Assembly: GCF_003334255.1 (NCBI RefSeq)
Contig: NZ_QOWU01000058.1
Length of the DNA stretch: 32,432 bases
Strand: one strand, 5' to 3'
Origin: Escherichia coli
Lineage (GTDB): Bacteria > Pseudomonadota > Gammaproteobacteria > Enterobacterales > Enterobacteriaceae
This document shows positions 29,369 to 30,153 of the stretch, piece after piece. The translations under genes were made by a program, and so were the position numbers. A model generated the notes under the pieces. The model saw only the letters and a list, made by a program, of their open reading frames with translations, did no database searches and was not told the DNA's origin. How positions within the stretch are numbered: the stretch's first letter is position 1; every line of letters starts with the position of its first letter.

Positions 29369-29771
29369 AGCTATCTCCGTAGACCGTAAAACAATCACTC
29401 GTTGAGCGTTTTATAGGCGCAGACTGGTCGAATAATTGTGAGAACGTTCACGTGAAAACGCGCAAAGCTGAACAAATAAAAAATTATGTGAGCCGAGTGG
29501 AATAAAAGCGCTCAACGTTTGTGAAAGTTACGGGCTGGAGAGACCAGTGATTATGGTTGAAATAATGAGGATGAATAAAACGCGGTAACTGTTATAGCAC
29601 CACTTTGTTGCAGGACGCTCCCTCTTCATTACGTCCTGCACGTGGATACCCCAGCATCTCCATCAGCGGATCTTAGAATGTAATGGCGCGTGGCAGGTCG
29701 TTGGTTCCCAGCATAATGTAAGAAAACATCGGATCTCCTGAATAGATTCAGAGGGAGTATAGATAATCAGC

Positions 29772-30027
29772 TCAAATCACTCTCCGCTTTATGAGCCCAG
29801 GCTGGCATTGCCGTCAGATAACGTTTTGCACGCTTATGTGCTTCCTCCGGGCCGACTTTTTGCCAGGAATCAAGGAATCTGGCTAAACCTGATACCGCTT
29901 CTTCCCAGGGTTTGAGATTGCCGTTGCTGTCGCTGCATTACGCACAATATTGATCACTGGCACTGTGTGCATCTGGTGCCGACATCGGCATTCCGCAAGC
30001 CTGACAGAACTGTTCATGTTGTGACAT
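29772..30027 (-). pseudogene. Zinc-ribbon protein gene interrupted by a stop/frameshift (yjhY-like)
   Basis: On the - strand, the ATG at 30027 gives MSQHEQFCQACGMPMSAPDAHSASDQYCA then TAA. The next frame continues ...SDSNGNLKPWEEAVSGLARFLDSWQKVGPEEAHKRAKRYLTAMPAWAHKAESDLS to a TGA at 29772-29774. Confidence 0.4.
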
Positions 30028-30153
30028 ATGATGCTCCTTATGGTGACATCTTGATTAATAAACATACTGAATATGTATTGTGCAGGTGATACATCAGATC
30101 AAAGCAAAGGTAAAGCCTCGATATTTCCAGCCAGAAATACCGGGAACCTGTTG

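Follow-up and report, generated by a model that had tools for sequence, protein, structure and literature searches.

The Escherichia coli stretch of 32,432 nucleotides analysed here (referred to below as the window) has no intact protein gene in the interval flanked by two minus-strand genes, sgcX with its annotated ATG at 29368 and yjhP with its stop at 30154, and this raises the question of what the interval once encoded and what has become of it. The answer proposed here, with a probability of about 0.92, is that it holds a two-gene cassette, coding for a zinc-ribbon protein and a VOC enzyme, which is dead in the present lineage through ordinary gene decay. The stretch is not decay throughout: the ~250 bp proximal to sgcX behave as the upstream region of the sgc operon.

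The sequence-only reading had described ~750 bp without an intact gene around a zinc-ribbon fragment, which is borne out between sgcX and yjhP, and had called this a decay zone that may mark a past insertion or deletion. Decay is indeed found for the zinc-ribbon gene, yjhY, and for the VOC gene stump, but not for the ~250 bp nearest to sgcX, which are sgc upstream region. A deletion is also found, although in the neighbouring VOC gene, of which residues 1-38 of ~130 are left, and not in the zinc-ribbon gene.

Layout and occurrence of the sgcX-yjhP interval

The interval is divided into four segments, listed here in the order in which they follow yjhP on the minus strand.

30028-30153: spacer between yjhP and yjhY
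29767..30027, minus strand: yjhY pseudogene, an 86-codon Zn_ribbon_2 (PF12674) frame plus TGA, with an in-frame TAA at codon 30
29616..29729, minus strand: VOC gene stump, codons 1-38 of ~130, with TAC>TAA at codon 19
29369..29615, minus strand: sgcX upstream region, ~90% identical in strain fS149a

The 751-bp stretch 29400-30150 is 100% identical to that of E. coli G1/2 and 99.9% identical to that of K-12 MG1655, and it is present in 1673 of the 5426 complete E. coli genomes, being chromosomal every time. A scan of 29000-30600 with the Rfam 15 covariance models gives no match up to E = 1, the generic promoter/terminator scan gives background level only, and the ungapped repeat search finds short matches at chance level. 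No terminator-like site is found on the minus strand from yjhP to the VOC stump, and the fold of a 402-nt minus-strand RNA is not significant (z = -1.2).

The yjhY frame is interrupted by a single nonsense mutation

The minus-strand ATG at 30027, which is intact and preceded by an AAGGAG Shine-Dalgarno sequence, opens a frame of 29 codons including a CxxC motif, MSQHEQFCQACGMPMSAPDAHSASDQYCA, followed by TAA; in this respect translation confirms what had been read from the sequence alone. Past the TAA, a further 56 codons, CSDSNGNLKPWEEAVSGLARFLDSWQKVGPEEAHKRAKRYLTAMPAWAHKAESDLS, can be read in the same frame before a TGA at 29767-29769 closes it, the translation opening with CSDSNGNLKPWEE and ending in AHKAESDLS. 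The features of this frame that are discussed below are as follows.

29938..29940, minus strand: ochre codon of yjhY, TAC (Tyr30) to TAA ('tta' on the plus strand)
29782..29784 (approximate), minus strand: 1-nt deletion site near the 3' end of yjhY, placed by DNA alignments with loci L010, L013 and L014 and by protein alignment
29883..30065, minus strand: 60-codon ORF in another frame overlapping yjhY, judged spurious

The inactivating mutation, for which an alignment with intact homologs had been proposed as the check, is thereby found as TAC>TAA at codon 30, a single C>A on the coding strand (G>T at plus-strand position 29938). In the four-strain DNA alignment, codon 30 is TAA in the window and in K-12 and TAC in strains R12 and 4/1-1, and there are no indels between codon 1 and codon 81 when compared with the intact alleles. 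These alleles (WP_000084876.1 and WP_000077645.1, 86 residues) lie at the same coordinates in R12 and 4/1-1 and are named 'zinc ribbon domain-containing protein', intact, by PGAP. R12 has the closest intact allele, differing at 6 of 751 positions, and the window frame differs from it by Y4H, Y30stop and S50R.

The same pseudogene is carried by the reference annotation. In RefSeq NC_000913.3, the pseudogene yjhY (b4656) at 4532050..4532310 (complement) corresponds to 29767..30027 of the window, and in other K-12 assemblies PGAP flags yjhY with 'internal stop'. The K-12 MG1655 gene lies at the same locus between sgcX and yjhP, with the same boundaries and the same internal stop; a single substitution, AGC>AGA (Ser50Arg) at codon 50 (29878, plus strand), sets the window apart from K-12 and lies in the untranslated part downstream of the stop. 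The zinc-ribbon pseudogene is real and more than a chance frame, but it is already known, because the reference annotation carries it as a pseudogene. Judged from the alignments, the nonsense mutation is recent, and the 'decay' is little more than one base, because the in-frame part past the stop is almost unchanged, with only S50R as a non-synonymous difference from K-12.

A further change is visible near the 3' end of the gene. The 1-nt deletion is common to every sgc-linked E. coli yjhY allele, the 'intact' ones included, and converts the ancestral C-terminus AHKADE (83 residues) into AHKAESDLS (86 residues).

Predicted effect of the stop on the zinc-ribbon protein

The intact R12 allele matches Pfam PF12674 (Zn_ribbon_2) with E = 2.3e-10, residues 7-77 covering model positions 1-80 of 81. 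A database search gives 75 homologs of the yjhY product, with E-values down to 1e-51, in Citrobacter, Yersinia, Lelliottia, Enterobacter, Serratia, Klebsiella, Phytobacter and Kosakonia. The complete homologs have 81-88 residues and none of them ends at residue 29. The alternative named in the sequence-only reading, that the 29-codon product is the native full-length protein, is contradicted by these homologs and by the 86-residue intact alleles, and the description as a decayed small zinc-ribbon gene stands, the gene being yjhY, which is annotated as a pseudogene in K-12.

In an alignment of 15 homologs, Cys8, Cys11, Cys28 and Cys31 are invariant, residue 30 is Tyr or Trp in 15/15 sequences, and the C-terminal half is highly conserved (LDSWQKVG..RYLTAMPAWA). 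Substitutions with respect to homologs from other genera are distributed over the three codon positions as 10/3/43 and 12/11/40, mostly in the third position, and the frame has therefore been under purifying selection as a zinc-ribbon frame. In an AlphaFold2 model of the intact protein (pLDDT 88.5), N-terminal zinc knuckles precede three helices, 41-56, 60-72 and 75-84. The PF12674 proteins of Enterobacterales (81-88 residues, function unknown) share the CxxC...CxxC motif and the conserved helical part with the intact E. coli alleles. No matches were obtained with the zinc-ribbon and VOC proteins in NCBIfam, PADLOC and PHROGs, the only match to PDB sequences is a non-significant one to the PknG rubredoxin domain (E = 0.66), and a literature search on yjhY (b4656) and PF12674 found no relevant paper and no yjhY expression data.

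The window yjhY has no uninterrupted ORF of 81-88 codons. Its DNA is a member of the PF12674 family, whereas its predicted product is not: the TAA at codon 30 precedes the codon of Cys31, and the translated product would lack the four-cysteine CxxC...CxxC arrangement. The base after the TAA is a T, and TAAT is a strong termination context. Translation from the intact start would end there after 29 residues, and the truncated product would keep Cys8, Cys11 and Cys28 and lack Cys31 and the three-helix C-terminal part; with three ligands left and the helices gone, neither a four-Cys zinc site nor the fold is therefore expected. Loss of function by the codon-30 stop would be the straightforward consequence, because the stop takes away the fourth zinc ligand and all three C-terminal helices.

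Distribution of the stop allele

Alleles were counted by means of exact 61-mers centred on the codon-30 site in the 1655 complete E. coli genomes with this locus. The TAA 61-mer is present in about 908 of these (about 55% of the carriers) and the TAC 61-mer in 679. Among the TAA carriers are K-12, BL21, C600 and DH5alpha and also numerous isolates from clinical and animal sources, and ST131 and O55:H7 have the intact form. All TAA carriers have near-identical haplotypes (the band of at least 99% identity), and this distribution fits one recent event that has spread with a clade including the laboratory K-12 and B strains.

The VOC gene stump

In the 114 bases starting 37 bases downstream of yjhY (minus strand, 29729-29616), the translation reads MFSYIMLGTNDLPRAITF, a stop, and DPLMEMLGYPRAGRNEEGA. 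This is 84% identical to residues 1-38 of the intact 130-residue protein encoded next to the zinc-ribbon gene in locus L010 (tblastn, E = 4e-17), and when the entire window is searched by tblastn, nothing corresponding to residues 39-130 comes up. The deletion has taken ~70% of the gene, and its end-point lies at 29616-29622. The internal stop, TAC>TAA at codon 19 (29673-29675), is present in 4/4 aligned strains. The intact homolog itself matches PF00903 weakly (E = 0.007, positions 9-118 of 121); of the complete VOC domain of ~120 residues, the window encodes residues 1-38 only, with a stop inside. PGAP annotates the stump with 'internal stop; missing C-terminus', and the reference K-12 record NC_000913.3 has no annotation for it.

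Genes for intact VOC proteins (glyoxalase / bleomycin resistance / dioxygenase, ~130 residues) occur in the same order after the zinc-ribbon gene, with a gap of 31-47 bp; the window stump differs from them in missing ~70% of the gene and in having the stop at codon 19. A deletion or rearrangement would have fused the VOC gene at about codon 36-38 with the sgcX upstream region, and this gene would have been lost before yjhY, if the order of events has been read correctly. An 8-bp inverted repeat, GCAGGACG...CGTCCTGC, at ~29610-29639 (minus strand) straddles the end of the VOC homology and is degenerate in fS149a; it may be a rearrangement scar.

The cassette in other strains and genera

In another E. 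coli island (loci L013 and L014), topAI, yjhP, the zinc-ribbon gene and a longer, damaged VOC gene occur in the same order. Because of this shared order, the zinc-ribbon and VOC pair is taken as the ancestral tail of the topAI-yjhQ-yjhP unit. Intact zinc-ribbon and VOC pairs are found at the same short distance in L010 and in Citrobacter (L016 and L017). The two-gene cassette would thus have sat downstream of topAI-yjhQ-yjhP before dying in the lineage of the window.

In other Enterobacterales (L004, L009-L011 and L016-L021), a small enzyme gene comes next after the Zn_ribbon_2 gene in every case, at a distance of 8-47 bp, and its kind varies: it codes for a VOC protein, a dienelactone hydrolase or a DUF1349 protein. 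A DUF1062 gene lies divergently upstream of the Zn_ribbon_2 gene in L004-L011, and a YjhX-toxin gene recurs nearby in L018 and L019.

The neighbouring genes are also broken in some strains. In R12 (L002 3255-4604, the yjhP and yjhQ orthologs, window ~30154-31501), yjhP has an internal stop and yjhQ a frameshift, and in 4/1-1 (L003 4058-4605) yjhQ, the antitoxin gene, is frameshifted beside an intact topAI toxin gene. The set of broken genes changes from strain to strain, which suggests that selection on the module as a whole is relaxed.

The segment next to sgcX as a candidate CRP-dependent promoter

The segment 29369-29615 shows no VOC homology by tblastn and no Rfam match. In fS149a the corresponding segment also adjoins sgcX and is accompanied by a VOC stump of greater divergence; that strain lacks yjhY and yjhP and has an IS4 remnant and unrelated genes in their place. 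The segment is assigned to the sgc operon because it is kept beside sgcX in fS149a without yjhY and yjhP, and it probably provides sgcXBCQAER with its promoter and operator region. The following elements can be recognized in it.

29437..29452, minus strand: CRP-like site TGTGAGAACGTTCACG (TGTGA-N6-TCACG, one mismatch to consensus)
29410-29415, minus strand: TATAAA, -10-like hexamer, read from the sequence
29400-29414 (CGTTGAGCG-TTTTAT) and 29503-29518 (ATAAAAGCGCTCAACG), no strand: arms of a gapped inverted repeat, read from the sequence

By chance, 1.16 occurrences of the CRP pattern would be expected in the window, and the match alone is not significant. In class II CRP-dependent promoters the CRP site is centred at -41.5. 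Between the centre of the CRP-like site and the first base of the TATAAA hexamer downstream of it there are 29.5 nt, a spacing that fits this position, and there is no good -35 element; the predicted start is near 29403, which would give sgcX a 35-nt leader. In fS149a both CRP half-sites and the hexamer are kept, and 4/6 spacer bases differ. The within-species comparison of the sgcX upstream region covers three haplotype groups only and has little comparative power. A published table of genes whose hunger response needs cAMP-CRP includes sgcX with a value of 4.4-fold (PMC4512719). Together, these properties make a class II CRP-dependent promoter the most likely reading of the segment. The candidate, as read from the sequence, shares the site, the 29.5-nt spacing and the poor -35 element with the class II CRP promoters of sugar-catabolic operons.

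The inverted repeat (15/16 nt), which was missed by the ungapped repeat finder, brackets the putative sgcX promoter, and its arms are unchanged in fS149a despite the ~10% divergence of the segment. Speculatively, its arms could serve a looping repressor, for example the DeoR-type SgcR, as a pair of operators.

Alternative explanations

Three other explanations concern the 29-codon frame itself. That it is a functional micropeptide, selected after the truncation, would agree with the intact start codon and AAGGAG ribosome-binding site and with the high frequency of the TAA allele among carriers (~55%), but no homolog ends there, the complete homologs having 81-88 residues; the peptide would have three of the four zinc ligands only; the near-identity (at least 99%) of the TAA haplotypes fits one recent event; and the closest intact allele, that of R12, differs at 6/751 positions only. 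We consider a micropeptide very unlikely. The version given in the sequence-only reading, in which a frameshift has moved the C-terminal part of ~55 codons into another frame, has in its favour the 60-codon ORF 29883-30065, which spans the stop and had been taken for the same fragment extended. This ORF is in an unrelated frame: it begins at a distance of 38 nt from 30027 (38 mod 3 = 2), it is open across the yjhY stop by chance, and the substitutions among homologs follow the zinc-ribbon frame and not this one. With no indel from codon 1 to codon 81, and with the conserved C-terminal sequence (56 codons) being encoded in the same frame, decay by frameshift retains hardly any probability and is refuted by the same-frame continuation and the single C>A. 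A sequencing or assembly error is the least probable of all, to a degree that can be neglected, and is refuted by the identical 61-mer in 908 independent complete genomes, the stop being present in the reference MG1655 annotation too.

The remaining alternative concerns the present role of the dead genes, which could have been co-opted to serve the sgc operon as a long 5' leader or a platform for its regulation, with transcription starting upstream of yjhY or reading through from topAI-yjhQP and with NtrC bound inside yjhY. One of its elements lies in the yjhP-yjhY spacer.

30086..30114, minus strand: sigma-70-like promoter TTTACC-17-TATCAC, exact match, 59 nt upstream of the yjhY ATG

This sequence was reported for the sgcX/yjhP spacer by genomic SELEX with the RpoD holoenzyme and assigned to sgcXBCQAER (PMC3946193), an assignment which favours a leader; if active, it is the old yjhY promoter. 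In 4/1-1, a cluster of substitutions and a 1-nt indel occur at 30090-30131, including the -35 element of this promoter, and the flanks are nearly identical. Genomic SELEX with NtrC gave a peak at 4,530,150 in the same spacer (PMC8743547), which converts to ~29844 of the window on the assumption that the coordinates are those of U00096.2 and with our own offset of 1977 to NC_000913.3. With this assumed conversion, the peak centre is ~10 bp from a TGCAC-N6-GTGC palindrome (29827-29841, plus strand) inside yjhY, the only one in the 32-kb window. The minus strand running from yjhP to the VOC stump, which is free of terminator-like sites, and the reported response of the Sgc iModulon to nitrogen-containing carbon sources (PMC13343008), also point in this direction. 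On the other side, SELEX is an in vitro method of low resolution, and the palindrome is encoded by conserved codons (EAHKRAK). The canonical spacing of NtrC sites is N7, and not N6 as in this palindrome; the canonical N7 palindrome is not found, and the stretch has no match to the sigma-54 promoter consensus. The predicted RNA has no significant structure (z = -1.2) and no Rfam match, and the sgc operon of fS149a keeps the proximal ~250-330 bp only, without yjhY. Co-option as a leader is therefore considered unlikely, and the interval is best described as a dead two-gene cassette next to a retained sgc upstream region.

Significance

For this dead zinc-ribbon and VOC cassette, the significance of the yjhY finding is small, yjhY being a textbook example of a recent pseudogene that is flagged in the reference annotation. 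The exact lesion, TAC>TAA at codon 30, is reversible by one base change, and the ~45% of E. coli genomes with the island that keep an intact gene provide natural, isogenic-like contrasts for the study of PF12674 or of topAI-yjhQP. The candidate class II CRP promoter can now be tested for the poorly understood sgc operon. It is also conceivable, but improbable, that Zn_ribbon_2 is the constant first gene of a cassette with an interchangeable small-molecule-modifying enzyme, forming in E. coli the tail of the antibiotic-induced topAI-yjhQ-yjhP unit, or else that the dead cassette is an sgc leader bound by NtrC or RpoD. If the cassette proposal is true, ST131 and other strains in which the allele is intact would keep an uncharacterised component of a stress response that K-12 has lost.
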